Shown: positions 237-58,272 of the stretch, one piece after another
Layout: each line of letters opens with the position of its first letter
How positions within the stretch are numbered: position 1 is the stretch's first letter
Source of the DNA: Escherichia phage vB_EcoM_01
Length of the DNA: 64,000 bases
Sequence record: PP129558
Reading direction: 5' to 3' (one strand)
Translations under genes and position numbers: made by a program
Notes under the pieces: generated by a model
The model's input: the letters and a program-made list of their open reading frames with translations, nothing else
Told to the model about the DNA's origin: nothing
Database searches by the model: none

Positions 237-682
237 GATAAATAAGTGTTTGTGTGATTTATAATCAGGTGGCCCACCTTGTCGCTATGTTGGCATGAGC
301 CTTGCATAAGTCATTGAATACGAATGATAATTATTCTCATTCGCATGATATTTGGGAATTGTCGCTGCGTGGACCTGACGGCCCGAAAATTCGCGTTAAG
401 CACTTCTTACGTATGCGCCATGATTTTTGCCATATGATATTGATTCTATTAGATATTCTTGCCATGATTGCCATGAAACAGGGTGTCCCGAAATAATCTC
501 TCCCCGTGGATATTTTGGGTTACTTTTTATACAAGAGTGGGGTGTCAAAAATAATCGGTATATATGGGATAATTGATAGGAATCCCCTATGATAATTCGA
601 TTGTAATTCCTTAAGATTGATCGTATGATGTTGGTGATTGATGATTGCCATGAAAGATGGCTAACGATGAGAGGAGATTATC
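237..682 (+). promoter_or_regulatory. Non-coding leader with repeated ATGATTGCCATGAAA-type motifs upstream of the first gene
   Basis: 15-nt motif at 464-478 and 641-655, related copies at 417-438 and 459-470; no ORF with RBS. Confidence 0.35.
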
Positions 683-1057
683 ATGCAAGAGAGTAAAAAT
701 GTTCCGTTGAGTAGTGCAACATTACTTCGCTTCTATAAAGCATGGATTGCCAACTATCCTGCAATGAATCGCACAACGAGTGGCTTATGTGGTTGTCTGG
801 TAGATTATGTAAATGATTTTGTTGGTGAGACACCTAGAGAAGAAGATAGAAAATGGCGTGATCATTTGTTGGACCGTTTGAAATATGAAATGAGGAAACA
901 ATTTACATGTGCAGGGCTGGACTACAATCTTCCGTTCAATGTGGATTGCATGGATTACCTTTCAGAGTGTATAAACTTGGCGTGTCATACCAACACGTTA
1001 CGTCTTCAGTGGGTGAAAGATCGGATTGAAGATGCAAATAATGCTTGCATTGAATAA
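683..1057 (+). CDS. Hypothetical protein; member of 5-copy paralog family (GLCxCL ... GL..PF ... RxxWVKxR)
   Basis: GAGGAG RBS; motifs shared with ORFs at 4886, 8106, 11403, 12708. Confidence 0.5.
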   Translation: MQESKNVPLSSATLLRFYKAWIANYPAMNRTTSGLCGCLVDYVNDFVGETPREEDRKWRDHLLDRLKYEMRKQFTCAGLDYNLPFNVDCMDYLSECINLACHTNTLRLQWVKDRIEDANNACIE

Positions 1058-1106
1058 AGATGTTTGTATAATGGATGACATAACAGATAGCCAATGAGGA
1101 GATGAA

Positions 1107-1316
1107 ATGAAGAATTTGAAAACTGTCACAATGTTCTTGACTGATCCTACACGTGTGCAAGCACTGGCTAAAGCCAGCCGTGTAGCTGTAGAATTCCAAA
1201 ACTTTAAGCCGTCCGTTGTGACAGGCAGTGAAACGTGTGTTATCGATTTCATTAACGAATACTTCCGAGGGAATCCGGTTGGTCGTTACTTTATTAAGGG
1301 TCTGAAGGATGCATAA
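1107..1316 (+). CDS. Hypothetical protein
   Basis: ORF with GAGGAG RBS. Confidence 0.4.
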   Translation: MKNLKTVTMFLTDPTRVQALAKASRVAVEFQNFKPSVVTGSETCVIDFINEYFRGNPVGRYFIKGLKDA

Positions 1317-1539
1317 TATGAAACGCATGAAAATTCGTATTGAGAATGATGGTGGTTATAAAGGATTGGCACATGCAAAATTTCCACTTGTGTTGGAAGC
1401 TACAGTGGAATACAGTGGGCTTGCTCATGTACGATTCTCGAAGATGATGGAAGTGCAGGAATGGTTTTGGGACGAGATAGATGCACGAGAAGGGGAAGAT
1501 TATGTTTTCTTTCCTCATGAATATAACATTGTTTATTAA
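1309..1539 (+). CDS. Hypothetical protein; C-terminal W-F-W-D-E-I-D...DYVFFPHEYNIV motif shared with ORF 5596..5817
   Basis: ORF; paralog similarity read by eye. Confidence 0.4.
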   Translation: MHNMKRMKIRIENDGGYKGLAHAKFPLVLEATVEYSGLAHVRFSKMMEVQEWFWDEIDAREGEDYVFFPHEYNIVY

Positions 1540-1542
1540 AGG

Positions 1543-1791
1543 TTGTGTGCAATGATCACACCACAACAGAACGCAGCAGCAATGGATCTTCTTGATAGTT
1601 TGTATTTCGATAATTGGTACTCTGAATGTGAATGGATGAATATGCAAACTCTGAAAGAGAAGACAGAAGCGTTGATTACAGTAGATCAATTTCTTGCAGA
1701 GACGGAAAGAATGAATTATGATATGGCATCTCGCGCACGACGCGTTTCCATTTTCAATAAAATGTTAGCATTATGGGGAGGTAGAAAATGA
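1543..1791 (+). CDS. Hypothetical protein
   Basis: ORF in dense same-strand array. Confidence 0.4.
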   Translation: MCAMITPQQNAAAMDLLDSLYFDNWYSECEWMNMQTLKEKTEALITVDQFLAETERMNYDMASRARRVSIFNKMLALWGGRK

Positions 1792-2249
1792 GACAATTCA
1801 CTGTACTGGCAGCTTATGTGCAATGTGTTCACGACTATGTTAGTGCTCATACAGGTGTGCTGGAAGTTACCAGTAAAATTGAAGGTAATATGGGTACTGT
1901 CTGTGTGCAACATACTTTATCCAATGTACCGTTTAAAGTGTTCACTGTTGTAGCTGCCGATTACAATCGTGTAGATGTGCGTTTCTTGGATCATAATTTT
2001 CGTAACGCGCTAGATAATATCGAAGATTATCTTCCCGTGAAACCTTTGTCATTTCCACCAAATCGTGCAAATAATGTAGTGACAAATCTTAATGAAAGGA
2101 ATGTGGCTATGCACAAAAAAGTCCGTCAACTGAAAACGCTGATGGAAATGCAAGAAGAGATTGAAAAAGAACTGAAAGAAGATTTTGGTATGCTTCCAAA
2201 AGACGCTTTGAAATGGTATGATGAGTTAGGAGGAGAGAACAATGTTTAA
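1788..2249 (+). CDS. Hypothetical protein
   Basis: ORF, GGAGG RBS, start overlaps upstream stop. Confidence 0.45.
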   Translation: MRQFTVLAAYVQCVHDYVSAHTGVLEVTSKIEGNMGTVCVQHTLSNVPFKVFTVVAADYNRVDVRFLDHNFRNALDNIEDYLPVKPLSFPPNRANNVVTNLNERNVAMHKKVRQLKTLMEMQEEIEKELKEDFGMLPKDALKWYDELGGENNV

Positions 2250-2691
2250 AGAAGGTCATGTTTACCGTTTCCAGGATGAAGATTATATGCGACTATATTC
2301 TACCTTTGATAACAGTATTGCTGCTATCATCGGAGAGAATTTTTTCGAGGTGTTGAGCACTGATGCAAATGGTAATATCTTGTCAATGGTTGTGATAGGT
2401 ATGAGGGACGGTATTATCACTGCTGGCGATGGGGATCGTTACATAATCAATTCTGCTCATATAGATTATTTTGTTGACGGCGGTGGTCGTGGAAAACCCC
2501 AAGAAGAGCCTGTTGATACAACAAAAGAAGAGTGGTATGTTGTAATGACTGGTGACACCTGTATCTCTGGATCTCAAAGTTATGAAGAAGCTTTGAAAGA
2601 AGCAGCAGAGCATAAAATGACTAATCCTACAGAAGAGGTTGAAGTTTATAAACGTTTGGTTGTTGCTACCATCGGCGTATCTTTTGTTTAA
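2242..2691 (+). CDS. Hypothetical protein
   Basis: ORF with AGGAGGAG RBS. Confidence 0.45.
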   Translation: MFKEGHVYRFQDEDYMRLYSTFDNSIAAIIGENFFEVLSTDANGNILSMVVIGMRDGIITAGDGDRYIINSAHIDYFVDGGGRGKPQEEPVDTTKEEWYVVMTGDTCISGSQSYEEALKEAAEHKMTNPTEEVEVYKRLVVATIGVSFV

Positions 2692-2703
2692 AAGGGGNNT
2701 NTT

Positions 2704-3141
2704 ATGTTNAAAGCTAATGCTGTTTACTGTTTCAAAAGTAAAGCTGCCTGTGAAGCTTTCTCTGTGATCTCGGATGAAAATTTCAAAATGGCAGCTTTGA
2801 TTGAAGGGTCTTGTTTTCGCGTCGAAGATGTTAGTGAATCAGGGTCTGTTTGCTCATTGACTTTATTGGACAGCGGGGATATTATTGAAGCTGGACAGTA
2901 TCCGTTCAGAAGTTGGGAGATATTGTTAGCTCGCGGAGAGCGTAACTTTTTTATGTGCGTGTCTGCGGGGGAAGTTGTGAAAGAAACTAAGGATGTTTCT
3001 GTTTACAATTCTGAATTTATAAGTTATAGTGAGTATCAACATCTGGAAGGCATTGTTGGTCACTTGTTATCTCTGATTGACATTGAATGTGACCTTCCTG
3101 AATCATTGAAAGAAGAGTTGAAAGCATTAGATCTGCTGTAA
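2704..3141 (+). CDS. Hypothetical protein (ambiguous bases near start)
   Basis: ORF; N bases at 2698-2709. Confidence 0.4.
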   Translation: MXKANAVYCFKSKAACEAFSVISDENFKMAALIEGSCFRVEDVSESGSVCSLTLLDSGDIIEAGQYPFRSWEILLARGERNFFMCVSAGEVVKETKDVSVYNSEFISYSEYQHLEGIVGHLLSLIDIECDLPESLKEELKALDLL

Positions 3142-3168
3142 TGTTTCGCACAACGAAAGGAGAATAAG

Positions 3169-3468
3169 ATGAATCTGACTGAACAGTTACGCCGTATTGC
3201 AAAAGAAGCTTCCTTCAACTTCCCTGTTGAAGAAGTGATCGAGACATGTTTTGCTGAAGCACGAGCGGGAAACTCTTCAAGAAATTTCACGCCATCTGAT
3301 TTTGGTCTGGATAATTCCCCTACCCACCCAGGGGCGATCTACAATCAGGTGAAGTGGATGGATGAAGCAGTAGCAATTCTTCGTGAGCGTGGGCTTATTG
3401 TTTATAAAGAAATGGATTTGAACGGGGCATACGAGTGGATCACTATTGATTGGTCGGAGGTGAAATAA
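3169..3468 (+). CDS. Hypothetical protein
   Basis: ORF with AAGGAG RBS. Confidence 0.45.
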   Translation: MNLTEQLRRIAKEASFNFPVEEVIETCFAEARAGNSSRNFTPSDFGLDNSPTHPGAIYNQVKWMDEAVAILRERGLIVYKEMDLNGAYEWITIDWSEVK

Positions 3469-3677
3469 TGGTTACTATCACATTGACAGTTACACAAGAG
3501 CAAGCAGAAGAATTACGTGATGCACTGGCATATATGGGACGCGCTTATTATATGCCTCACAAATCTCAAGATGTTTTTGCTACAGCCGTTGAGAAAGCTT
3601 TAAATAAATACCAAGAAACTCATGCCGTTCCTAAAGTATCAGCGGAAGAGTTTGGCACTTGGCACGAAGTTCACTGA
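3450..3677 (+). CDS. Hypothetical protein
   Basis: ORF with GGAGG RBS. Confidence 0.4.
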   Translation: MVGGEIMVTITLTVTQEQAEELRDALAYMGRAYYMPHKSQDVFATAVEKALNKYQETHAVPKVSAEEFGTWHEVH

Positions 3678-3687
3678 GGAGGTTTCG

Positions 3688-3921
3688 ATGAAAGGTAACA
3701 AGATGAAAGTTAATCAAGTGCCGAGCGCATACACTTTGTGGCTTGCACGAGCGTTACACCAGACGATCAAAAACCCTAAGAAGCCAATGAAGAGCGGGAA
3801 GAAGTTTATGTCTAAGGGCAAAACAACCTTTGGCTTCACTCGTATGTCTGTTAAGATGAAAAGACTGGGGTACAAGCCAAACTACGCTCGTTACCCTTCT
3901 GAATACAACTGGTTTGACTAA
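3688..3921 (+). CDS. Hypothetical Lys-rich basic protein
   Basis: ATG at 3688 preceded by GAGGAGG; table ORF 3622 trimmed to RBS-supported start. Confidence 0.4.
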   Translation: MKGNKMKVNQVPSAYTLWLARALHQTIKNPKKPMKSGKKFMSKGKTTFGFTRMSVKMKRLGYKPNYARYPSEYNWFD

Positions 3922-4019
3922 AAGGAGGAAGATTATGGCTACTTTTCAACAACTGAAAGATGTTTCACGTTTAGTAAGAAAAATCCGAGAAGCAGACGCT
4001 GCTGCTGTCTCTTATACAN

Positions 4020-4609
4020 NNNNNNNNNNNNNNNNNNNNNNNNNNNNNNNNNNNNNNNNNNNNNNNNNNNNNNNNNNNNNNNNNNNNNNNNNNNNNNNNN
4101 NNNNNNNNNNNNNNNNNNNNNNNNNNNNNNNNNNNNNNNNNNNNNNNNNNNNNNNNNNNNNNNNNNNNNNNNNNNNNNNNNNNNNNNNNNNNNNNNNNNN
4201 NNNNNNNNNNNNNNNNNNNNNNNNNNNNNNNNNNNNNNNNNNNNNNNNNNNNNNNNNNNNNNNNNNNNNNNNNNNNNNNNNNNNNNNNNNNNNNNNNNNN
4301 NNNNNNNNNNNNNNNNNNNNNNNNNNNNNNNNNNNNNNNNNNNNNNNNNNNNNNNNNNNNNNNNNNNNNNNNNNNNNNNNNNNNNNNNNNNNNNNNNNNN
4401 NNNNNNNNNNNNNNNNNNNNNNNNNNNNNNNNNNNNNNNNNNNNNNNNNNNNNNNNNNNNNNNNNNNNNNNNNNNNNNNNNNNNNNNNNNNNNNNNNNNN
4501 NNNNNNNNNNNNNNNNNNNNNNNNNNNNNNNNNNNNNNNNNNNNNNNNNNNNNNNNNNNNNNNNNNNNNNNNNNNNNNNNNNNNNNNNNNNNNNNNNNNN
4601 NNNNNNNNN
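4020..4609. other. Assembly gap (N run) with duplicated flanks and adapter remnants
   Basis: 3856-4006 repeats at 4630-4780; CTGTCTCTTATACA at 4007-4018 and ACACCACGTCTG at 4610-4621. Confidence 0.8.
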
Positions 4610-4708
4610 ACACCACGTCTGTTGTNNAGATGAAAAGACTGGGGTACAAGCCAAACTACGCTCGTTACCCTTCTGAATACAACTGGTTTGACTAAAAGGA
4701 GGAAGATT

Positions 4709-4885
4709 ATGGCTACTTTTCAACAACTGAAAGATGTTTCACGTTTAGTAAGAAAAATCCGAGAAGCAGACGCTGCTGTGCGGAATGCACTAACGCCAGC
4801 AGAGCGTGAAGATCTTGAAGAGGAGGTGAAAACAGCCGAGAATGCTTTTGCTGCGTATCTTTCAACACTGTATACAGGAGGTTAA
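4709..4885 (+). CDS. Hypothetical protein (5' end also present in duplicated flank at 3935)
   Basis: AAGGAGGAAG RBS then ATG; 59 aa. Confidence 0.4.
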   Translation: MATFQQLKDVSRLVRKIREADAAVRNALTPAEREDLEEEVKTAENAFAAYLSTLYTGG

Positions 4886-8939: not shown

Positions 8940-9395
8940 ATGAAAAAATTTATTTGCACCCGTTCCACTAACAGTGATATCCTTGTAGGTAAGGTTATCA
9001 AAGGAGAACTCTTCCATGCAAACGGTAAGAAATATATTCTGCTGAAAGATTCTTTCAACGGGGAATATCCGCGCTGCACTTTCTTCAATTACAACACTCC
9101 ATTTGCTTTAGAAGGAGATGCTTGGGACTGGGCTGAACTTCATCCTTTCTGTGAAGATGGACAGACAGAAGAGCAGGAAGAATCTACGGGAAGTTTACGT
9201 GATAAACTGCGTAATAAAGCACTGCAAGCAAATTCCCATTTTACTGAAATGGTAGACGCCGTTCTATTAGAGANNNAAGANNGNGCAAATGTTGTAGCTA
9301 CAATGCTACGTGCAAAAGGTTTGGATGTAACATTGGCAACCGCAGAGCACAGTATTTTTGGGATTATCAAACACATCGTTATTAGTTGGAACTAA
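8940..9395 (+). CDS. Hypothetical protein (contains ambiguous bases)
   Basis: ORF with GAGGAG RBS. Confidence 0.45.
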   Translation: MKKFICTRSTNSDILVGKVIKGELFHANGKKYILLKDSFNGEYPRCTFFNYNTPFALEGDAWDWAELHPFCEDGQTEEQEESTGSLRDKLRNKALQANSHFTEMVDAVLLEXXXXANVVATMLRAKGLDVTLATAEHSIFGIIKHIVISWN

Positions 9396-17509: not shown

Positions 17510-17780
17510 ATTCTTCGTTAGATTGCGTTTCAGAGGCGTTAAATTCGGTTTCAGTACAGCTTGCTAGGTAACTTATGTTTTGCATCACTACAACTACAGG
17601 TGTTTGAAGTTTATCTTCTAGCCCAGCAGCCACTTGAGCCAAGGCGTTATCAATATTTGATTTCCTAACGCCTGTTCCATGCCCTGTTGCCAAGTAAAGA
17701 TTACCTTCCCCTTTTTGTGTAGCATTGGCAAAGTAGTAAACGTAATGTGCAAGGTAGTAATCACGGATTTCTTCAGTCAT
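17508..17780 (-). CDS. Hypothetical protein
   Basis: ORF with AGGAGA RBS. Confidence 0.4.
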   Translation of the reverse strand: MTEEIRDYYLAHYVYYFANATQKGEGNLYLATGHGTGVRKSNIDNALAQVAAGLEDKLQTPVVVVMQNISYLASCTETEFNASETQSNEE

Positions 17781-17798
17781 TTTATTCTCCTAATAAGA

Positions 17799-17816
17799 AA
17801 GGGGCCGAAGCCCCTT
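17799..17816 (-). promoter_or_regulatory. Intercistronic GGGGCTTCGGCCCC hairpin (UUCG tetraloop), copy 1 of 3
   Basis: Identical 14-nt hairpin also at 29844-29857 and 36012-36025. Confidence 0.5.
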
Positions 17817-17823
17817 GAGTGGT

Positions 17824-18624
17824 TTATTTGTTTAAGTGGTCTTCGACCATTTTAATGAAACCTTCATTGCTGAAGGCTGTTGCAGCTTTTTCTCGGTAAA
17901 CAAAAACTCCACGATCTTCATAGAGAAGTGTTTCTTCGTAATTAACTCCAGGGTTAACTACAACCATTTTTGTTCCGATGTTAAGAGCAGGAAAAAGCTC
18001 CCAGTTAAAATTGATAACTTGATTAGAGCAACCCACTACAATCACCATATCTTGAGCCGTCAAGCCGTCTAAGATGTGGTACATATCGTTATACAATGGG
18101 GCAGTCTCCCCAAAGAACACTACATTGGGCTTCACATACTTGTAATCATCTACATCGATAGCAGCATAGCCAACATCTTTGATGATTCTATTGTCTACGA
18201 TCACTTCAGGCAGGAAGCCGTGAACATGTAGAACATCTTCATGAACAACACCTGCTTGTTCCAGAAGATCATCTACGTTTGTCGTGATGTTGATAACACG
18301 ATCACAGCCGTACTCTTGGAACCACTCTGCGATCTGGTAATGCGCAGCGTTAGGAGACACACTATCCATCTCTACGCGACGTTTATTGTAGAAGTCATGA
18401 GTTTTACGGTAGAGGTTGTATCCCTCTGCATCTAATCCACCAACAGCGCCAGGAACACACTGTTCTTGCTGGTAGCCAGCACGGAAATTGAAAATATCGC
18501 ACACTTCAGAAAGGTCGTATTCATCCCACAAAGCTTTCCCACTATCTGTATCAGTGCGGAAAGTACGTACACCGCTATCGGCGCTTAGACCCGCGCCGCT
18601 GATCACTATTAATCGTCTTGGCAT
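17824..18624 (-). CDS. Sir2-family (sirtuin-like) NAD-binding protein without visible zinc-ribbon module
   Basis: ISGAGLSADSGVRTFR, TNVDDL, HG, VVFFGE, VVGCS motifs; GAGGAGG RBS. Confidence 0.7.
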   Translation of the reverse strand: MPRRLIVISGAGLSADSGVRTFRTDTDSGKALWDEYDLSEVCDIFNFRAGYQQEQCVPGAVGGLDAEGYNLYRKTHDFYNKRRVEMDSVSPNAAHYQIAEWFQEYGCDRVINITTNVDDLLEQAGVVHEDVLHVHGFLPEVIVDNRIIKDVGYAAIDVDDYKYVKPNVVFFGETAPLYNDMYHILDGLTAQDMVIVVGCSNQVINFNWELFPALNIGTKMVVVNPGVNYEETLLYEDRGVFVYREKAATAFSNEGFIKMVEDHLNK

Positions 18625-19158: not shown

Positions 19159-19771
19159 CTATACCAGACTTTCAAGGTATTTGTCAAGGGCTTCTTGATC
19201 ACCTTGACAAACATAGCAACGGAAGTCTTGAGCCGAAGGTTGTTTATTTTCATCCCAGTCCCAATAAACATTACCCTTATAACGTGAACCAGGAAACTCA
19301 AAAGAGGCTGTATGTGTAATGTATCCTGGGCCACCAGTGAAATCACAGAATGAGAATTGAGGATATGCCGCCTTTACTGCCTCAATAAACCAAGCTTTAC
19401 GATCTAAGGCTTCATTGATGCTATATGCATGTCTCTCCATTTCTTCCCAAGTTTTCCAGACACTTCTCTCATCAGGAGAAAAGACAAGCNATTCNGGANG
19501 NGNANNNAGNNGACTCCTCCAGTTTTGAGTAATCAAAAGCAGAATATACCCACCAACCATCCTCCAGTAAGGCTTTGATAGGGACGAAGCCTTTATCAGC
19601 ATATTGATCGAATTGTTTGACACGGTGGCTTGTGCAGTCTTCAAACTCACATTCTAAACGATATGCACCTTTTCGACGAGCCTCAAGACCGTGTGTACTG
19701 AAAATAACAACACTTCCTTCACCATCATTACGATCTACTTGATAAGCAACTACTGGTTTTGAATTTGACAT
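19159..19771 (-). CDS. Hypothetical protein (ORF interrupted by ambiguous bases at 19490-19512)
   Basis: Two table ORFs in same frame across N-containing stretch. Confidence 0.4.
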
Positions 19772-34904: not shown

Positions 34905-35989
34905 TCGAAGTCAAGCTCCTCATCATCAGAGAGATCTTTGTTAGCTGAATTCAATTTGTAGTTAGTTAACTGAATCTCTTGGGCTGCTGACTGAATCAAA
35001 TCAGGATTCAACCATTTTTCCATCCAAGCTAAAGGACTATGTTTAGGTGCTTTAAACTTGGCTTTCATTTTCAATCGACGATAAATAGGGGCAGCATTGA
35101 AATAAACCCACTGTTTAGACAATTCGGCGTTAAGACCTACAATAAAACGCCCTTCACTAAACAGGTAGTCACACCACTGTTCCTCTTGTTCAACAACAGT
35201 GTCGAGAATCAAAGTCAACTCTTCGATATTGTCTTCGTAAATTTTACGCCAAATTGGGTCATGCATCAATGCATCAATTACAGCATAATCCATCTTAACA
35301 TGCAAGATTTCATCTAGCATAATTTTCTGGATCAGTTTACAAGCCCCAACAAACAGTTGTTGTTCTGCCATAGCAAAAGTAGCAGAGAAGGAAGATATAA
35401 ACTGAATACCTTCTAATCCAATCAGGGCTACCATCCCTTTAAGAATCAGCAGTCGAAGTTCATCGTTAGCTTCAATCAATCCTAGAGCATACTTATGACC
35501 AGCTTCTTCCAACTGACCCATGATATCAGCAATGATACCCATACGATTGAAAATTTTATCATTAATCATAATCTGATTGATGACTTCGATTGGATCTGGA
35601 GTACATTGACGGATTATTTCAGAATACGTTAACGCATGGAGAACTTCCATTTCACTCTGCTTCATCATCATAGCACAGGCTTCATTGTTACTCAAGAATG
35701 GAGAGAACAAAGTGATGATTGATTTTGCAAGAGAATCATTTTCCCATTGGAACGATAAGTTTTTAATCATAACATCATAGTTGTTTTTAGAACAAGCTAC
35801 GAAATCTTTACGTGTCTGATCCAGATTGACTTCATTCTCATCCCAATCTTGTGCTTTTTGAAGTTTGTAGAGTTTGTGCATCTCTGGATAAGTTACGTTA
35901 ACAGAATCAAAGATCCCTAATTGTTCCCCTAAAAATACTGGATATTTTCCTGTTTTGTAAACTTCATTGTGTAAATTAATTGCTGCCAT
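34901..35989 (-). CDS. nrdB: Ribonucleotide reductase small (beta) subunit
   Basis: Size and position next to nrdA; assigned mainly by context and family resemblance. Confidence 0.75.
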   Translation of the reverse strand: MAAINLHNEVYKTGKYPVFLGEQLGIFDSVNVTYPEMHKLYKLQKAQDWDENEVNLDQTRKDFVACSKNNYDVMIKNLSFQWENDSLAKSIITLFSPFLSNNEACAMMMKQSEMEVLHALTYSEIIRQCTPDPIEVINQIMINDKIFNRMGIIADIMGQLEEAGHKYALGLIEANDELRLLILKGMVALIGLEGIQFISSFSATFAMAEQQLFVGACKLIQKIMLDEILHVKMDYAVIDALMHDPIWRKIYEDNIEELTLILDTVVEQEEQWCDYLFSEGRFIVGLNAELSKQWVYFNAAPIYRRLKMKAKFKAPKHSPLAWMEKWLNPDLIQSAAQEIQLTNYKLNSANKDLSDDEELDFE

Positions 35990-36011
35990 TTAAAATTCTC
36001 CTCAATAAAAA

Positions 36012-36025
36012 GGGGCCGAAGCCCC
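36012..36025 (-). promoter_or_regulatory. Intercistronic GGGGCTTCGGCCCC hairpin between nrdA and nrdB, copy 3 of 3
   Basis: Hairpin + T-run then GAGGAG RBS and nrdB ATG; duplicated at 37013-37026 by assembly. Confidence 0.5.
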
Positions 36026-36123
36026 TAGTTTCATCACATCTTGCAAGCTTCACAACCACCATCAGAATCTTCTTGTGCTAAAGAGTCTGCTGATTTTGTT
36101 CTACTATTAAGGTAATACAATGA

Positions 36124-36975
36124 NNNNNNNNNNNNNNNNNNNNNNNNNNNNNNNNNNNNNNNNNNNNNNNNNNNNNNNNNNNNNNNNNNNNNNNNNNNNN
36201 NNNNNNNNNNNNNNNNNNNNNNNNNNNNNNNNNNNNNNNNNNNNNNNNNNNNNNNNNNNNNNNNNNNNNNNNNNNNNNNNNNNNNNNNNNNNNNNNNNNN
36301 NNNNNNNNNNNNNNNNNNNNNNNNNNNNNNNNNNNNNNNNNNNNNNNNNNNNNNNNNNNNNNNNNNNNNNNNNNNNNNNNNNNNNNNNNNNNNNNNNNNN
36401 NNNNNNNNNNNNNNNNNNNNNNNNNNNNNNNNNNNNNNNNNNNNNNNNNNNNNNNNNNNNNNNNNNNNNNNNNNNNNNNNNNNNNNNNNNNNNNNNNNNN
36501 NNNNNNNNNNNNNNNNNNNNNNNNNNNNNNNNNNNNNNNNNNNNNNNNNNNNNNNNNNNNNNNNNNNNNNNNNNNNNNNNNNNNNNNNNNNNNNNNNNNN
36601 NNNNNNNNNNNNNNNNNNNNNNNNNNNNNNNNNNNNNNNNNNNNNNNNNNNNNNNNNNNNNNNNNNNNNNNNNNNNNNNNNNNNNNNNNNNNNNNNNNNN
36701 NNNNNNNNNNNNNNNNNNNNNNNNNNNNNNNNNNNNNNNNNNNNNNNNNNNNNNNNNNNNNNNNNNNNNNNNNNNNNNNNNNNNNNNNNNNNNNNNNNNN
36801 NNNNNNNNNNNNNNNNNNNNNNNNNNNNNNNNNNNNNNNNNNNNNNNNNNNNNNNNNNNNNNNNNNNNNNNNNNNNNNNNNNNNNNNNNNNNNNNNNNNN
36901 NNNNNNNNNNNNNNNNNNNNNNNNNNNNNNNNNNNNNNNNNNNNNNNNNNNNNNNNNNNNNNNNNNNNNNNNNNN
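36124..36975. other. Assembly gap (N run) flanked by 148-bp exact duplication
   Basis: 35976-36123 equals 36976-37123. Confidence 0.8.
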
Positions 36976-37034
36976 ATTAATTGCTGCCATTTAAAATTCT
37001 CCTCAATAAAAAGGGGCCGAAGCCCCTAGTTTCA

Positions 37035-39275
37035 TCACATCTTGCAAGCTTCACAACCACCATCAGAATCTTCTTGTGCTAAAGAGTCTGCTGATTTTGT
37101 TCTACTATTAAGGTAATACAATGATTTGCCACCCAGTCTAGCAAAATTCAAAATAAACTGCATCTCAGCTTTCACGGATAAACGTCCACCTACCAATTTA
37201 GAATAATCTAGCCAAGAATCACAAGAAATTCCTTGGTCAGTAAACTTGGTAAAGATACCATACATTTCTGCAAGGTCTTTAGCCGGAGTATCCCAGGCAG
37301 ATTGGTAGAACATTTTCAGTTTTTCGTAGTCTGGAACAATAAATAATACACTACCTTTCTGACTTTGTTTATACATAATGGTATCACGAACAGGATACAG
37401 AGAGTTAGTAGTATTGCTTACCAAACTGCTGGACTCATTAGGTGCAATAGCAGCCAATACACTGTTACGGATACCACCTTGTTCAATGATTTCAGCACGT
37501 AAGCCTTCCCAGTCCATTTTAAGATCAAAATTACCGATACTATCTACTGTTTTAGCATAAGTGTCAATTGGTAGCCAACCTTGAGGCCATTTGGTCTTAT
37601 CGATCCATTCTGCATTACCTTTTTCCTTAGCCAGACGCAGAGAGGCTTTTGCCAACCAGAAGTAATGACGTTCTGCAAGTTCATGCATTAATTTTTTAGC
37701 ATAAGCATCTGAATAATTTACAAAATTACTTGCCAAGTAATGCGCTAAGTTTGTAATGCCTACACCAATAGATCTACGTGCTTTAGCAGTTATTTCGTTA
37801 TGTTTAAATGGATAATCCATTGTTTCAATAACGTTGTCAATTGTCAATACAGTGTAGTATGCAACATCTTCATATTCTTCAGGTAATACACGACCAGCAA
37901 CAATAGAAGATAAGAAGCATAAAGCCAATTCTTGATCTTCTGTATTCTCACCAGTAAAGAGATCCGGCATACTGTGGAAAGCTTTAGTTGGTAAGAAGAT
38001 CTCTTGACACAGGTTTGATTGATACACCGTATCCAGGAAAGGTGTATGGTTGTTAACGTTGTCAGCAAAGAACATGTAAATACGTCCTGTTTCTGCACGT
38101 TGAACAATAATCTCTGTCAGAAGATCACGAGCCTTAACAAATTTTTTCTTAATGCGACGACGGCTTACTTTGTCATAAACTGCATCAAACTCTTCTTCAC
38201 TTTTATACAAAGCTTCATAAAGTTCTGGAGCATCATCACAACTAACTAACATCCAATCTTCGTTTTTTGCTGCTCGACGCAAGAATGAACGGTTAACAAC
38301 AATAGAATAATCCAGTTTGTCTACTCGTTTATCTATAGGTGTTGTTGGATTCTTCAGTCGAATCAGATCGTCGAAGTCTGGTTCAAGTATGGTAAAGGTA
38401 ACTGTAGCACTACCTCCACGGCTTGCTTGCTTCGAAGCTCCAACACTATCTTCCATCCATTTCAGATATGGAAGAAGACCACCATGAATAATACGATTAT
38501 TCTTAACACCTTGACCTGTGGCACGAGTTTGAAGATTAACACCAATACCTGCGTTATTTAACGTATACTCATGAGCTAAGTAATTAGCAATGGCTAAAGA
38601 CTCTGCTGTATCGTCTGCGCGGAATAAACAACAAGACGCACTTCCTTTGATTGGAGTTCGTAGAGTTGTCAGATACGGCGATGGCAGATTAATCTTAAGA
38701 TCGCTAACATAAGTATAAAGTTTTTTAATATCTTCTATACGGCGTTCTTTTGGTTGGATCTCCATAACCTTCATTGCGATACCAATGAAAAGAAACTGTG
38801 GAGACTCATGCACAACATCGTTTACTGCATCTCGAATAAGATATTTATCTACCATCTGACGTAAAACAGAATAACCATAAGTTAGATTTTTATTATGCTT
38901 TACAATCTTACCGATTTCTTTGATCTCTTCATCAGTATAATCCATTTTAGCCCAATGTCCACGTTCTACCATATCATGATAAAAGGTATTCAGTGAAGGG
39001 ATACTGTGGTATCCCCCATGAGCCTGTTTGTAAATCATACCCAGAAGAAGTCTTCCTGCCATATCACTGTAAGCTTGTGTTTTCTTGTCAATACACGCTG
39101 CAATCATTGCTTTATGCAGATCACGTGTAGACACACCGTCATAACACCGCTTCACAGCTTCTAATTCAATTTCAGACCAGTTTAGTTTACCTGCTGCAAA
39201 TTCAGACCACTTGCGAAGTTTTTCTGGATTAAACTCCTCTGTCTTACCGTTAGATTTAGTTACAAAACGAATCAA
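37035..39275 (-). CDS. nrdA: Ribonucleotide reductase large (alpha) subunit, class I
   Basis: 746 aa; multiple conserved Cys including C-terminal pair; context with nrdB and glutaredoxin. Confidence 0.8.
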   Translation of the reverse strand: MIRFVTKSNGKTEEFNPEKLRKWSEFAAGKLNWSEIELEAVKRCYDGVSTRDLHKAMIAACIDKKTQAYSDMAGRLLLGMIYKQAHGGYHSIPSLNTFYHDMVERGHWAKMDYTDEEIKEIGKIVKHNKNLTYGYSVLRQMVDKYLIRDAVNDVVHESPQFLFIGIAMKVMEIQPKERRIEDIKKLYTYVSDLKINLPSPYLTTLRTPIKGSASCCLFRADDTAESLAIANYLAHEYTLNNAGIGVNLQTRATGQGVKNNRIIHGGLLPYLKWMEDSVGASKQASRGGSATVTFTILEPDFDDLIRLKNPTTPIDKRVDKLDYSIVVNRSFLRRAAKNEDWMLVSCDDAPELYEALYKSEEEFDAVYDKVSRRRIKKKFVKARDLLTEIIVQRAETGRIYMFFADNVNNHTPFLDTVYQSNLCQEIFLPTKAFHSMPDLFTGENTEDQELALCFLSSIVAGRVLPEEYEDVAYYTVLTIDNVIETMDYPFKHNEITAKARRSIGVGITNLAHYLASNFVNYSDAYAKKLMHELAERHYFWLAKASLRLAKEKGNAEWIDKTKWPQGWLPIDTYAKTVDSIGNFDLKMDWEGLRAEIIEQGGIRNSVLAAIAPNESSSLVSNTTNSLYPVRDTIMYKQSQKGSVLFIVPDYEKLKMFYQSAWDTPAKDLAEMYGIFTKFTDQGISCDSWLDYSKLVGGRLSVKAEMQFILNFARLGGKSLYYLNSRTKSADSLAQEDSDGGCEACKM

Positions 39276-46461: not shown

Positions 46462-47190
46462 TTATTTCTTAGCAATGATTTTTGCAATATCAGGTTTAAC
46501 AAAGGTAGAAGGCTTCATGATCTTACCTTTATCATCAAAGAACACATACACTTTCTGTTTTTCATTATAAACAGCATGAACACCAGTGTATGCCCCTTCT
46601 GGACGATTGGCATTTCGTTCTTCAATTGCAGCGCATTCTTGTGCAATGGCTGAATCGATATCCGAAGTTTTCCAAGTTTTCAGCAACTGTTGTTTAGTTG
46701 GATACTTGGAATCATTACTTTTCAATACCTCTTTAATAACTTTCTTTTCTGGATATTTTGAACGGATTAGAGTGTCACGAGACATACGCATAATACCAGC
46801 AGCCATTAGTGCCATTTGAACTGGCTCTGTAAATGTTTGTTCCAAAGCATCAAAATCAGTATACACAGTTGGAGTAAAAACATCGCCTACAACATAGTCC
46901 AAGAAATTCATCGTATGTTCTTCACCAAAGAACATGTAAGTAAGATAACTGGATACTACAAAAATATCCGCTGCTGCATCCAAGAGTTCTACATGATCGT
47001 TTACTTTCGCGGCTGTTTCATACTCTTTAAGCTCTTCACGAACGAACCCGATTTGGGACATAAATAGCTCTTGAGTGAATTCAGGTTGTTCACCACCTCG
47101 TGCTTTGGCATTCCAATCAATTACGTGCTTTGCTGCATTTTTGAAAAATTCAGTATCGAATTTAATATCTTTAAAAAAATTCTCGATCAT
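46462..47190 (-). CDS. MazG-like nucleoside triphosphate pyrophosphohydrolase (tentative)
   Basis: REELKEYETA (EExxE) and ELLDAAADI (ExxD) motifs. Confidence 0.45.
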   Translation of the reverse strand: MIENFFKDIKFDTEFFKNAAKHVIDWNAKARGGEQPEFTQELFMSQIGFVREELKEYETAAKVNDHVELLDAAADIFVVSSYLTYMFFGEEHTMNFLDYVVGDVFTPTVYTDFDALEQTFTEPVQMALMAAGIMRMSRDTLIRSKYPEKKVIKEVLKSNDSKYPTKQQLLKTWKTSDIDSAIAQECAAIEERNANRPEGAYTGVHAVYNEKQKVYVFFDDKGKIMKPSTFVKPDIAKIIAKK

Positions 47191-47199
47191 TATAACTCC

Positions 47200-47382
47200 T
47201 TATTTAAAATAGCTTTCTAGAAAGTTGCTAATATTTACTACAGACTCACCCATGTAAATCCCTGCGAAACCGAAAACAAGCATACGTGGAATATTGAAAT
47301 ACCATTTATCTGCCGGAAAAGATGCCAGAATTACGATAGCAATTGCTATCAACATCATAAGAATTGTTGCTAAAATTATCAT
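47200..47382 (-). CDS. Small hydrophobic membrane protein (lies in duplicated segment)
   Basis: MIILATILMMLIAIAIVILA; GGAGG RBS. Confidence 0.35.
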   Translation of the reverse strand: MIILATILMMLIAIAIVILASFPADKWYFNIPRMLVFGFAGIYMGESVVNISNFLESYFK

Positions 47383-47622
47383 AAAAATGCCTCCAGGTAT
47401 TTTGCACAATGATAAGCTAAGAACATTTTTCCTCCTTATTCTGCTGGTTCCCAAGTGCCTGGGATCATTTCTCGAATACGATAGCAATTGCTATCAACAT
47501 CATAAGAATTGTTGCTAAAATTATCATAAAAATGCCTCCAGGTATTTTGCACAATGATAAGCTAAGAACATTTTTCCTCCTTATTCTGCTGGTTCCCAAG
47601 TGCCTGGGATCATTTCTCGAAT
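47339..47622. repeat. Exact tandem duplication of ~142 bp (probable assembly artifact)
   Basis: 47339-47480 identical to 47481-47622, includes 3' end of ligase gene. Confidence 0.7.
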
Positions 47623-48708
47623 ACGAACACCAACAGGTTTTGTTGGAATACCTTCATCTGAAAATTCTTCATACTCTATTTCAACGAACTGATTAATCAA
47701 GGTAGAAGCATTCTCTGCTTTACGATAATTGATAGTCTCATGAGCATCTTTACGCATTAAGAATTCGACTACTTTACCATTTTCCATCTCACCTGTCAAC
47801 ACTCCATCACCATTTTTATCACTTTTTGAATTTGTTACTTTAACTTCAAGGGTGTGGCGAGGCTTACGTTTAATAACGTCATAAGAACGTTTATCAAATT
47901 CGTAAACTCCGTGAGCATTACGATATACTACACCTTCAGCTTTCTCAAGTAAAGCTTTTTCATAGAAAGCATCAAACTGTTCTTGGTTTTCAATATACTC
48001 TGTATGAACTACGCAAATAAGCTCGTCAAGACCATAATCTTCAACTACTGCCTTAAGAGCAGCAAGAACATCAACACGTTTTTCAAACGGTAGATCTGGA
48101 ACTGGAATATCGTATACGTAATAATTCAGCAAAGGTGTATTTGCATTATGCTTCTTCCAGGCACTGTTAATTTGTTGCAGACTAAGGACACCTAACCCAG
48201 CAAACACTTCACCATCAAGAGGATGACCAACAACTTCACTAATAAAGTTTGGAATACCTTTCCAATGAGGTGGCAGGTTATACACTTCTCCAGCTTTTGA
48301 TAAACACTCCCCTTTCATGTTAATCATAGAACGTAACCCGTTCAGTTTGTATTGTGCATAACCAGGGAACACAACCCTTTCAGGATAATCTTTATAATCC
48401 TGGCATTTCATTGGTGTGGAAGGAACATGGTTTTCAGCTTCTTCTTTTGTTTTATAATAGCCATTCTTTAACTGTTTTGTCCATTTGGCAAAAGCTTCAA
48501 GTTCAGCTTGTTCTTCTGGTGTTGTTTCATTGGAACGACCGATGTTTTTTGCTTCTGCTGTATAAGATTTTTCTGTGATTTTTCCACCTACCCTTCCATG
48601 AGCTACAGTAACAACTGCACCATCTGTATACACTGTCCACTGTTTAAGTTTTCCTTTTGAATCTTTACCATACAGCGTTTGATTTGTTTGTTGCATTAGT
48701 CCTCCCAT
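47581..48708 (-). CDS. ATP-dependent DNA ligase
   Basis: KLNGLR adenylation motif, DGEVF, 375 aa. Confidence 0.6.
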   Translation of the reverse strand: MGGLMQQTNQTLYGKDSKGKLKQWTVYTDGAVVTVAHGRVGGKITEKSYTAEAKNIGRSNETTPEEQAELEAFAKWTKQLKNGYYKTKEEAENHVPSTPMKCQDYKDYPERVVFPGYAQYKLNGLRSMINMKGECLSKAGEVYNLPPHWKGIPNFISEVVGHPLDGEVFAGLGVLSLQQINSAWKKHNANTPLLNYYVYDIPVPDLPFEKRVDVLAALKAVVEDYGLDELICVVHTEYIENQEQFDAFYEKALLEKAEGVVYRNAHGVYEFDKRSYDVIKRKPRHTLEVKVTNSKSDKNGDGVLTGEMENGKVVEFLMRKDAHETINYRKAENASTLINQFVEIEYEEFSDEGIPTKPVGVRIREMIPGTWEPAE

Positions 48709-51338: not shown

Positions 51339-51694
51339 TAGTATAATCCCTCGCTAAATAGGTCACGATCATGACCATTACGTTCGTAGTCAATCTGGTC
51401 TGCGTGTTTTGCAATAATGTATGCATCTTCACGACTCCACCAATTGTAGTATTGATCAATAAAACCTTGATTGTTTGGAAGACAATGCACTTTATCAAGC
51501 ACACCTGCTTCTTTCAATACATTCAATTGTGCTGATAATACAGGATTTGCATGTCGAACACAAGGAATAATTAACTCTTCACCATTATTCAAAATATATT
51601 TATTCGCAGCACAGACGATAACACGTTGCGCATAATGACCCTCACCAATCCAGGTAAGAGGTTGGTAACAAATGTTCTGATCAATACTACTCAT
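51338..51694 (-). CDS. Hypothetical protein
   Basis: ORF. Confidence 0.4.
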   Translation of the reverse strand: MSSIDQNICYQPLTWIGEGHYAQRVIVCAANKYILNNGEELIIPCVRHANPVLSAQLNVLKEAGVLDKVHCLPNNQGFIDQYYNWWSREDAYIIAKHADQIDYERNGHDRDLFSEGLY

Positions 51695-51912
51695 TAAGTT
51701 TCTCCTTAATAGTGAACACGAATCATTTTAATACCATAACGCAGCATGGATTCTTTTGCAAGCATATAACACGTTGCGCATAATGACCCTCACCAATCCA
51801 GGTAAGAGGTTGGTAACAAATGTTCTGATCAATACTACTCATTAAGTTTCTCCTTAATAGTGAACACGAATCATTTTAATACCATAACGCAGCATGGATT
51901 CTTTTGCAAGCA
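51619..51912. repeat. Exact tandem duplication of ~147 bp (probable assembly artifact)
   Basis: 51619-51765 identical to 51766-51912. Confidence 0.7.
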
Positions 51913-52210
51913 TGAATTTATCCCCAGCGGCGGGGTTAGAAGTATGCACGAAAATGGTAGGTGAACCAAAGCAAGGTTTACCAAACGCCAGAAGTTCTTC
52001 CAGGTACAGGAAAACATCATACCCATCTTGGTCTGACTCCATACCCAAATCGTTGTCAAAATGCCACTCGTCTACAAAACGATAACCCTTCTGCACCTCA
52101 TTCATGTAACGAGAGGCAAGAAGTTCCTGTGAGGTTTTAAACCAGATTGCATCTGGACAACCATAATCTTTTGGATCACGTAAATCATCAAGCCAAATAA
52201 TAGTACCCAT
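51854..52210 (-). CDS. Hypothetical protein with N-terminal IIWLDDxRDP motif
   Basis: ORF. Confidence 0.4.
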   Translation of the reverse strand: MGTIIWLDDLRDPKDYGCPDAIWFKTSQELLASRYMNEVQKGYRFVDEWHFDNDLGMESDQDGYDVFLYLEELLAFGKPCFGSPTIFVHTSNPAAGDKFMLAKESMLRYGIKMIRVHY

Positions 52211-52912: not shown

Positions 52913-53073
52913 GTTTTACCATTATCAACCAAGGTCTTTGCTACAGCATACTCCTTCCCATTAACAAGGAAATAATAAACTATAAAAGATTTCCCGATTG
53001 TTACTGTCTTAGTAACCTCTACACGTTTAACACCTTGCATGTATTTTGCCTTACCGGAATAGAGTAAAATCAT
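52891..53073 (-). CDS. Hypothetical protein
   Basis: ORF. Confidence 0.35.
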   Translation of the reverse strand: MILLYSGKAKYMQGVKRVEVTKTVTIGKSFIVYYFLVNGKEYAVAKTLVDNGKTWKVETL

Positions 53074-53351
53074 TTTGCATTCCTCTTGTTGTTGATAACA
53101 TCCATAGCAGTATATGGTTTATTAGTGCCATGATACTCCAGAATCATTGGAGAGCCTTCTTGCACTACTTCAAAGATACCATAAACAGAACTTTCAGCAA
53201 ATACCATTTGCTTCGTGCCTTCATCGTTTACAACGAGAGAAAACTTCTTGCCTGTCCCGTTGAGGATCTCGTATTTCTTGCCAGCAGTGAATAATCCAGA
53301 GTACCACTCATTATCTGTTGCTTTTACACACTTCAGGAAAGTCTTGATCAT
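53070..53351 (-). CDS. Hypothetical protein
   Basis: ORF. Confidence 0.4.
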   Translation of the reverse strand: MIKTFLKCVKATDNEWYSGLFTAGKKYEILNGTGKKFSLVVNDEGTKQMVFAESSVYGIFEVVQEGSPMILEYHGTNKPYTAMDVINNKRNAK

Positions 53352-53463
53352 TTCTTTTTGCTCCTCTTTTTAGATTTCTCATACAAACCTAACACAGCCG
53401 CTTCTTTTGCACAAGTAGGAACTGAAGTCATTCCTCTTCTTTTTGCTTCTGGCAGTTGCAAAG

Positions 53464-53844
53464 TCCATATTCNGTCTCTTATNNNNNNNNNNNNNNNNNN
53501 NNNNNNNNNNNNNNNNNNNNNNNNNNNNNNNNNNNNNNNNNNNNNNNNNNNNNNNNNNNNNNNNNNNNNNNNNNNNNNNNNNNNNNNNNNNNNNNNNNNN
53601 NNNNNNNNNNNNNNNNNNNNNNNNNNNNNNNNNNNNNNNNNNNNNNNNNNNNNNNNNNNNNNNNNNNNNNNNNNNNNNNNNNNNNNNNNNNNNNNNNNNN
53701 NNNNNNNNNNNNNNNNNNNNNNNNNNNNNNNNNNNNNNNNNNNNNNNNNNNNNNNNNNNNNNNNNNNNNNNNNNNNNNNNNNNNNNNNNNNNNNNNNNNN
53801 NNNNNNNNNNNNNNNNNNNNNNNNNNNNNNNNNNNNNNNNNNNN
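53464..53844. other. Assembly gap (N run) with duplicated flanks
   Basis: 53322-53463 repeats at 53860-54002; AGAGACAG adapter remnant at 53845-53852. Confidence 0.8.
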
Positions 53845-53879
53845 AGAGACAGCTTTTACACACTTCAGGAAAGTCTTGA

Positions 53880-54233
53880 TCATTTCTTTTTGCTCCTCTT
53901 TTTAGATTTCTCATACAAACCTAACACAGCCGCTTCTTTTGCACAAGTAGGAACTGAAGTCATTCCTCTTCTTTTTGCTTCTGGCAGTTGCAAAGTCCAT
54001 ATTCCCCACCAATAGATTTGGTCTGCCGTGAGTGGTTCAGCCATTGGATCTGCCTCCTGCTCCTCAAGACGTTGCAACGCTTCTTCAATCTTCTCGATTG
54101 GTGTGTCAAAGACGAATGCCTCCGTATCAAACTTATCTTTCTTAGGAACTGATTTGGCTACTTTGAGAACCTCGTTTTTCGGTTTCTTAGTAACGTTCTT
54201 TGGCTTTGATAACTTCTTCGGTGTTTTCGCCAC
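53880..54233 (-). CDS. Hypothetical Lys-rich protein
   Basis: ORF. Confidence 0.4.
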   Translation of the reverse strand: MAKTPKKLSKPKNVTKKPKNEVLKVAKSVPKKDKFDTEAFVFDTPIEKIEEALQRLEEQEADPMAEPLTADQIYWWGIWTLQLPEAKRRGMTSVPTCAKEAAVLGLYEKSKKRSKKK

Positions 54234-58024: not shown

Positions 58025-58100
58025 TGGTTTGTAGTGTAGTCCGGTAGCACACGACACTTTGACTGTCGTAGGTTTGGTTCAAATCCAGACAGACCAGCCA
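58025..58100 (+). tRNA. tRNA-Gln (anticodon TTG)
   Basis: Acceptor TGGTTTG/CAGACCA, anticodon arm CGACA-CTTTGAC-TGTCG. Confidence 0.65.
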
Positions 58101-58267
58101 TATAACGGAATTTAGCTCAGTTTGGTAGAGCGTACGCTTTGGGAGCGTAGGGTCGCAGGTTCGAATCCTGCAATNCNGACAGACCAGCCATATAACGGAA
58201 TTTAGCTCAGTTTGGTAGAGCGTACGCTTTGGGAGCGTAGGGTCGCAGGTTCGAATCCTGCAATTCC
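58088..58267. repeat. Exact ~90-bp tandem duplication spanning tRNA-Gln 3' end and tRNA-Pro, N bases at junction (probable assembly artifact)
   Basis: 58088-58177 equals 58178-58267; Ns at 58175 and 58177. Confidence 0.7.
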
Positions 58268-58272
58268 GACCA
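58196..58272 (+). tRNA. tRNA-Pro (anticodon TGG); a redundant copy at 58106-58182 lacks a proper 3' end
   Basis: Acceptor CGGAATT/AATTCCG, anticodon arm TACGC-TTTGGGA-GCGTA, T-loop TTCGAAT. Confidence 0.65.

Follow-up and report, generated by a model that had tools for sequence, protein, structure and literature searches.

The exact duplications in the genome record of Escherichia phage vB_EcoM_01 (PP129558) are very probably false duplications made in silico, when the sequence was put together along the coordinates of a related Phapecoctavirus genome with a structure of the ESCO5 type. This reading comes from comparing the sequence of a 64,000-nt stretch of the record, referred to here as the window, with that of its relatives. 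Four observations carry it: the L'R'-L'R' anatomy of the duplicated sites, in which L' and R' are the sequences that precede and follow a segment carried by some relatives; the two forms in which these relatives occur; a conserved coordinate frame; and the rule by which Ns were written. The use of a reference, its identity and the software are what we infer from the window.

Exact tandem repeats at three loci

Tandem Repeats Finder, a base-by-base extension of each period and a direct-repeat search identified exact two-copy tandem repeats at three loci, all with 100% identity between the copies. Tandem Repeats Finder placed them at 47332-47626 (period 145, 2.0 copies, 100% matches), 51618-51913 (period 148, 100%) and 58088-58264 (period 90, 100%). 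With N treated as a wildcard, the extended periodicity covers 47332-47626 (2 x 145 + 5), 51618-51913 (2 x 148 + 0) and 58082-58270 (2 x 90 + 9). Exact repeats of 90-148 bp far exceed what chance would produce. The preliminary description of this DNA had reported three perfect back-to-back duplications of a 90-147-bp unit, at 47339-47622, 51619-51912 and 58088-58267, with Ns at the tRNA-Pro junction. The three perfect duplications are confirmed, as are the Ns, of which there are two, in AATNCNGAC; the units actually measure 145, 148 and 90 bp, and the real boundaries lie 1-8 bp from those reported. The repeat copies are arranged as follows.

47332-47476, strand not applicable: locus 1, copy 1 of the 145-bp unit (the L'R' block), 100% identity
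47477-47621, strand not applicable: locus 1, copy 2, followed by the shared 5 bp TACGA up to 47626, from period extension; it occupies the columns of ESCO5 47122-47260 (gp109, a 64-aa ORF), which is absent from the window
51618-51765, strand not applicable: locus 2, copy 1 of the 148-bp unit, 100% identity
51766-51913, strand not applicable: locus 2, copy 2, at the end of which the periodicity stops, 100% identity; it overwrites ESCO5 51399-51547 (gp118, a 47-aa ORF)
58082-58171, plus strand: locus 3, copy 1 of the 90-bp unit, which runs from the 3' end of tRNA-Gln across a 5-nt spacer through most of tRNA-Pro(UGG)
58172-58180, plus strand: locus 3, junction AATNCNGAC, with two Ns inside
58172-58270, plus strand: locus 3, copy 2 (58172-58261 plus a periodic tail, N as wildcard), with the intact tRNA-Pro at 58196-58272

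As the preliminary description had also stated, the repeat boundaries cut through gene ends or a tRNA acceptor stem at all three loci. Those of locus 1 interrupt the ATP-dependent DNA ligase ORF (47581-48708, minus strand) within its last ~40 nt and a 60-aa ORF within its first ~50 nt. Two ORFs of 118 aa are cut at locus 2, the one annotated as 'anti-restriction nuclease' in relatives at its 5' end and its neighbour at the 3' end. The boundaries of locus 3 lie in the 3' part of tRNA-Gln and in the 3' acceptor strand of tRNA-Pro; ARAGORN predicts tRNA-Gln at 58025-58100 and tRNA-Pro(UGG) twice, at 58106-58180 and 58196-58272. One intact copy of every flanking gene is kept, as in any tandem duplication, and short chimeric ORFs arise between the repeat copies.

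The junctions between copies, of which CTCGAATACGATAGCAATTGC is an example running from R' to L', show microhomology of 5/5 bp at locus 1 (TACGA), 7/9 bp at locus 3 (AATCCAGAC/AATTCCGAC) and 0 bp at locus 2. The overlaps at loci 1 and 3 are each above chance, at roughly 1e-3. We considered whether the G at 47335 (TACGATAGC; A in SKA64, EcG1 and nieznany) might be an artefact that created the microhomology at locus 1, and rejected this, since the two halves of the junction have 100% matches in EF1-1, EP57 and ECML-183-2, which makes it a natural variant.

Duplicated flanks at long N runs

The window holds 22 N islands, including three long N runs at 4019-4609, 36124-36975 and 53483-53844. Duplications of the same kind, split across these three runs, had been overlooked in the preliminary description. 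The pairs are listed with the ESCO5 interval to which each corresponds.

3854-4004 and 4628-4778: 151 bp, exact, with Nextera adapter tips and the N run 4019-4609 between them; ESCO5 3616-4380 (gp011-013)
35975-36123 and 36976-37124: 149 bp, exact, with the N run 36124-36975 between them; ESCO5 35709-36765 (gp092 and the HNH endonuclease gene gp093)
53320-53472 and 53852-54004: 153 bp, exact, with the adapter tips gtctcttat and agagacag and the N run 53483-53844 between them; ESCO5 53063-53626 (HNH endonuclease gene gp124)

The members of these pairs are spaced 774, 1001 and 532 bp apart. A direct-repeat search with a 20-nt seed and a 40-nt minimum returned exactly six families of at least 40 nt in the window, all of them at these six sites; the six pairs are 100% identical, three being tandem and three split by N runs. 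The shared blocks measure 150 (145 + 5), 148 and 99 (90 + 9) bp at the tandem loci and 151, 149 and 153 bp at the gaps, so that five of the six are about as long as one 150-nt read, and presumably owe their size to it. When the window is aligned with Escherichia phage iGC_PHA_EC001, the coordinate in the latter jumps backwards at each long N run, as expected from duplicated flanks.

Nextera mosaic-end sequence is found at two of the three gaps, the first and the third (ctgtctcttataca, gtctcttat and agagacag), and the left end of the window is built in the same way as the overhang tips at these two gaps, with ~60-100 nt of real sequence and then adapter.

1-231: left-end overhang, poly-C followed by P5/i5/Nextera adapter
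232-322: left-end overhang, 91 bp of real phage sequence

The adapter contamination mentioned in the preliminary description is thus present, with poly-C at 4-155 and P5/i5/Nextera adapter at ~160-226. The window starts with ~152 C, P5, a 10-nt i5 index (ACCACGTCTG) and the Nextera read-1 adapter, with short N runs interspersed. The starting poly-C is the reverse complement of the poly-G of two-colour chemistry, and the reads were evidently not trimmed for adapter and poly-G before assembly.

Two forms among relatives at each locus

The window belongs to Phapecoctavirus (Stephanstirmvirinae; a phAPEC8/ESCO5-like E. coli myovirus) and is ~97-99% identical to many records, the closest being ~98-99.4% identical. 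At each tandem locus, the relatives come in a short and a long form. The two length classes at locus 1 are 1256 and 1403 bp, for a query of 1401 bp; at locus 2, the spans are 553 bp and 701 bp, so that the forms differ by 148 bp, which is the repeat period; and at locus 3, they are 511 bp and 599 bp, and the 88 bp between them compare with a period of 90. The extra segments of the long-form relatives, of 147, 148 and 88 bp, are set against repeat periods of 145, 148 and 90, and alignment shows that their sequence is unrelated to the duplicate in the window. The related records listed for the three loci (30, 60 and 60, respectively) mostly have short- or long-form spans, and a few are partial or odd.

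The long class of locus 1 (SKA64, vB_Ec-G1) has 147 bp of unrelated sequence, a segment that makes up most of a 64-aa ORF (ESCO5 gp109) and is bordered in the long form by the 8-bp direct repeat GCTAAGAA; it lies at about 917-1071 of the compared SKA64 and vB_Ec-G1 sequence. The short class (nieznany) is without this segment, and the window corresponds to the short form plus a 145-bp duplication. The short-form join, a single GCTAAGAA, is found at 47416-47423, inside copy 1, and 47416-47481 matches what the relatives have on the right of their extra segment. The short form retains one copy of the GCTAAGAA repeat together with a 15-codon remnant ORF. The presence or absence of gp109 is a natural difference among Phapecoctavirus genomes, and its structure suggests deletion between short direct repeats. 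Other parts that some Phapecoctavirus genomes have and others lack are the 47-aa gp118, two genes for HNH endonucleases and 88 nt of spacer between tRNA-Gln and tRNA-Pro.

The possibility that the long locus 1 relatives (1403 vs 1256 bp) carry the same duplication was discarded, as their extra 147 bp are the unrelated small ORF. It was the alignment of this long class, together with the comparison with iGC_PHA_EC001 at locus 2 and at the long N runs, that led to the hypothesis of a duplication wherever the sample lacks a segment of the scaffold genome. This missing-segment hypothesis predicted two forms ~90 bp apart at the tRNA locus, which were then found (511 vs 599 bp); the spacer from tRNA-Gln to tRNA-Pro is 93 nt in ESCO5 and 5 nt in the window. 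At locus 2, the short-form join lies at ~51695/51698, again inside copy 1. Shigella phage SF1-1, which has the short form of this locus (span 553 = 701 - 148), is 100.0% identical to the window copies, and a ~148-bp segment that iGC_PHA_EC001 has and the window lacks falls within the duplication.

None of the related records listed for the three loci (30, 60 and 60) matched across a duplication in one piece; the duplications are thus absent from the listed records of the lineage. Probes of 72-80 nt centred on the junctions matched the best-ranked related records as two separate pieces only. Among metagenome contigs, one relative of 150.7 kb had the natural boundary of locus 2 without the junction. 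Scans of viral and genome contig sets for exact junctions 1 and 2 were empty, as were the natural-boundary controls, and are uninformative.

Signs of repeats were also noticed in some other records. In PV659873.1 (WPEC1), tRNA-Gln is annotated twice, and the records of WPEC1 and WPEC2/4/6, of 155-161 kb, each give 10-12 separate matches to the first 484 bp of phage sequence in the window. These observations point to repeated segments in the WPEC records, whether real or artefactual.

A coordinate frame shared with ESCO5-type genomes

The whole window was compared with ESCO5 (NC_047776.2 / KX664695) and with OQ031492.1 (MRostami-2023b, an UNVERIFIED partial genome), both of which contain all the extra segments. 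The offset of the window to these two genomes stays between -292 and -322 throughout 64 kb. It changes by at most 5 bp for OQ031492.1 and at most 4 bp for ESCO5 at any of the six junctions. To the left and right of the tandem loci, the ESCO5 offsets are -302/-300 (locus 1), -297/-298 (locus 2) and -303/-305 (locus 3), and at the N-run sites they are -312/-310 (4019-4609), -293/-297 (36124-36975) and -308/-307 (53483-53844). The register at locus 2 is exact: the match extends to 51695 and resumes from 51846 at an unchanged offset, with 148 reference columns overwritten, and the offset to OQ031492.1 is -303 on both sides. iGC_PHA_EC001 carries another set of segments, and its offset to the window wanders by thousands of bp.

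All six sites fall on segments that ESCO5 and OQ031492.1 have and the window lacks, and the scaffold length is kept at each. These segments comprise gp011-013, gp092 with the HNH endonuclease gene gp093, gp109, gp118, the HNH endonuclease gene gp124 and the tRNA spacer. Read from the left, each junction passes directly from the flank to what the relative has on the far side of its extra segment (R'); read from the right, it passes from the flank to what the relative has on the near side, ahead of that segment (L'). Position and length therefore track segments that only some relatives have at 3/3 tandem and 3/3 gap loci, which a real duplication would not be expected to do.

The window differs from ESCO5 by 2-6% in sequence, as is expected of a consensus of the sample's own reads. 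Both ESCO5 and OQ031492.1 start at position 323 of the window and hold all six segments; neither yields the periods 145 and 90 exactly, and as the exact reference they were set aside and are kept as candidates only. OQ031492.1 has the same first base as ESCO5 and an offset to it of 0 to 13 over 64 kb, yet the two are 94-98% identical, and there are 2,472 Ns within its first 66 kb. It looks like another assembly in the ESCO5 frame, and may contain similar artefacts.

Ns at columns where the two sides disagree

At locus 3, the window agrees with the tRNA-Pro context as far as the junction and from there on with the tRNA-Gln context. Both Ns of AATNCNGAC stand at the sole mismatching columns between AATCCAGAC, from the tRNA-Gln context, and AATTCCGAC, from the tRNA-Pro context. 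A mirror-image scar is found elsewhere in the window.

19490-19511: N-rich island aagcNattcNggaNgNgNaNNNagNNgac, 22 columns, where left- and right-derived sequences collide

Compared with iGC_PHA_EC001, this island follows the left context and then the right, with letters where both agree and most of its Ns where they disagree. As iGC_PHA_EC001 is 41 nt longer here, the comparison indicates a probable false deletion, at a place where the sample is longer than the frame allows. At both sites, ambiguity codes mark disagreement in an overlap (AATNCNGAC and most Ns of 19490-19511); such an N is a column-wise conflict of left and right sequence, made by software and not by the genome.

Two more short N islands were noted. 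The one at 2698-2709 covers a ribosome-binding site with its start codon, where ESCO5 has AAAAGGAGAATGTTATGTTT, and the sequence around it is collinear. That at 9274-9284 lies within a stretch of ~240 bp (9157-9391) that is unaligned to the three relatives compared, with their length kept. The 216 bp at 3471-3686 did not align to iGC_PHA_EC001 or OQ031492.1 and are inside a continuous match to ESCO5 (window 323-3927), so that the window is closer here to ESCO5 than to the other relatives compared; a short tandem repeat of 15-16 bp follows at 3687-3718.

Origin of the duplications

The mechanism that we propose starts from a frame genome that would carry six segments missing from the phage, three of them small (147, 148 and 88 bp) and three large (~0.56-1.06 kb), two of the large ones containing HNH endonuclease genes. 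Reads or pieces anchored to the left of a missing segment would run on into the true right flank (R'), and those anchored to the right would run back into the left flank (L'). With both sides pinned to reference coordinates, the hole would be filled with R' and then L', giving ...L'R'-L'R'..., that is, an exact tandem duplication whose period comes close to the length of the segment that only the reference has. If this segment exceeds the two overhangs, its middle would stay N and the duplication would appear split, with adapter read-through at two of the three gaps. Overlapping overhang columns that disagree would be written as N. The tips would be merged on an overlap where one is present (loci 1 and 3, 2 bp off) and otherwise filled to the expected size (locus 2, exact). 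As the 322-nt overhang is longer than one 150-nt read, iterative extension is suggested, and a single-pass consensus with soft-clipped bases included would be insufficient.

A counterpoint is that the periods are off by 2 bp at loci 1 and 3 (145 vs 147 and 90 vs 88). These departures imply that the consensus would not have been strictly locked to reference columns, and the above-chance overlaps at the junctions call for a step in which tips are joined where they overlap best locally. Microhomology is also expected of a real duplication.

Assembly without any reference deserves consideration, as contigs that share about one read length could have been concatenated unmerged. Such plain contig-end overlap would suit both the shared blocks close to a 150-nt read at five of six sites (150, 148, 151, 149 and 153 bp) and the untrimmed adapters. 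It would give no reason for breaks at all six sites of ESCO5-type extra segments, would not reproduce the lengths of those segments, would leave an offset conserved within 5 bp unexplained and would make the lengths of the N runs arbitrary; we therefore regard it as very improbable. Overlap of k-mers in a de Bruijn graph was rejected as the cause because the block lengths vary (99-153 bp). A possible variant is a de novo assembly of a sample in which long and short forms were mixed, with the graph broken at bubbles; gap sizing based on a reference would then still be needed, and the duplications would still be artefacts. The preliminary description had favoured an assembly artefact over biology and contig overlap as its cause. 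The former is supported, in that left and right pieces share a 99-150-bp block and are laid end to end; as to the latter, unmerged overlapping ends are indeed involved, but the breaks are not random, since all six sites lie on ESCO5-type extra segments.

Real, very recent tandem duplications mediated by microhomology, with the tRNA locus perhaps providing an adaptive second tRNA-Pro as in phage T6 escaping Septu, would account for the microhomology at two junctions (TACGA; AATCCAGAC/AATTCCGAC) and for the one intact copy that remains of every flanking gene, and experiments have demonstrated that a phage tRNA region can be amplified in tandem with microhomology at the junction (PMC13096335). 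They would require three independent events, each on a variable indel site and each matched to its length within 2 bp. The anatomy is also common to three N-containing gaps, two of them with adapter tips, which real duplication leaves unexplained, along with the junction Ns placed exactly at mismatching columns and the scar of a false deletion. Locus 2 is moreover without any microhomology, the junctions are absent from the best-ranked related records, and the T6 case, in which a unit of 718 bp with a homing endonuclease gene builds up many-copy ladders, is unlike the window. We hold this origin to be extremely improbable. The preliminary description had allowed that real duplications could not be excluded; that room is now strongly narrowed, though not strictly to zero, and very little is left for biology given the pattern at 6/6 sites, the Ns at disagreeing columns and the mirror-image false deletion. 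That at least one duplication, most plausibly the 90-bp tRNA-Pro(UGG) unit, is real and very recent, its match to the ESCO5 spacer length being coincidental, verges on the incredible. Were it true, the 90-bp unit could be an early tRNA-gene amplification against a tRNA-targeting host defence, as in T6 and Septu.

Comparison with known false and real duplications

De Bruijn-graph assemblers leave a repeat of k-mer length, e.g. 127 bp, at the ends of circular contigs. In OR437326.1 (Escherichia phage iGC_PHA_EC001, 'complete genome'), the first 127 bp are repeated as the last 127 bp, and 17744-17870 of the window aligns to both ends of that record; this 127-bp terminal redundancy is probably a de Bruijn artefact with k=127. 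The repeats of the window resemble such terminal redundancy in being exact, shorter than a read and, under the proposed false duplication, purely assembly-made. They differ from it in that the redundancy has the fixed length k and lies at record ends, whereas the window has internal duplicates of varying length (90-153 bp) that go with reference-only segments.

False duplications are known to flank assembly gaps or to result when gaps are filled incorrectly (Ko et al. 2022, Genome Biol 23:205; PMC9516828). As in those cases, the copies in the window are adjacent or separated by Ns, with unsupported sequence between them, and they add false extra genes to the annotation, here a second tRNA-Pro and chimeric small ORFs. 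The published cases are mostly haplotype (heterotype) duplications in diploid vertebrates, whereas the trigger proposed for this haploid phage would be a difference in presence or absence from the scaffold, from which it would follow that the period mirrors the length of the reference-only segment.

Among real duplications, the closest likeness is phage T6, in which a SegB-associated tandem amplification of the tRNA region allows escape from Septu (Nat Commun 2026; PMC13096335). Its unit of 718 bp comprises a truncated homing endonuclease gene and is present in many copies under selection, as seen in PCR ladders and long reads (PMC13096335). The window resembles T6 in that its tRNA cluster contains a tandem repeat whose junction shows microhomology. 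Unlike T6, it has exactly two copies, Ns at the junction and a repeat that coincides with a reference-only spacer, all read from the sequence alone.

Significance

A user who takes the record as it stands would credit this phage with a second tRNA-Pro that is spurious, with chimeric small ORFs and with about 2.7 kb of false sequence, and would miss a probable false deletion of 41 nt. The true genome most likely has a single copy at each locus and one tRNA-Pro(UGG), and the 64-kb stretch is likely about 2.7 kb shorter in it. To judge from the comparisons above, the duplications are almost certainly not a real genomic feature of this phage and are without biological importance; their relevance is one of data hygiene. 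The diagnostic rule that they provide, namely, to look for exact duplications with a period as long as a segment that only a related genome has, and with the short-form join within the unit, may be reusable as a read-free screen for reference-guided assemblies of phages and other viruses.
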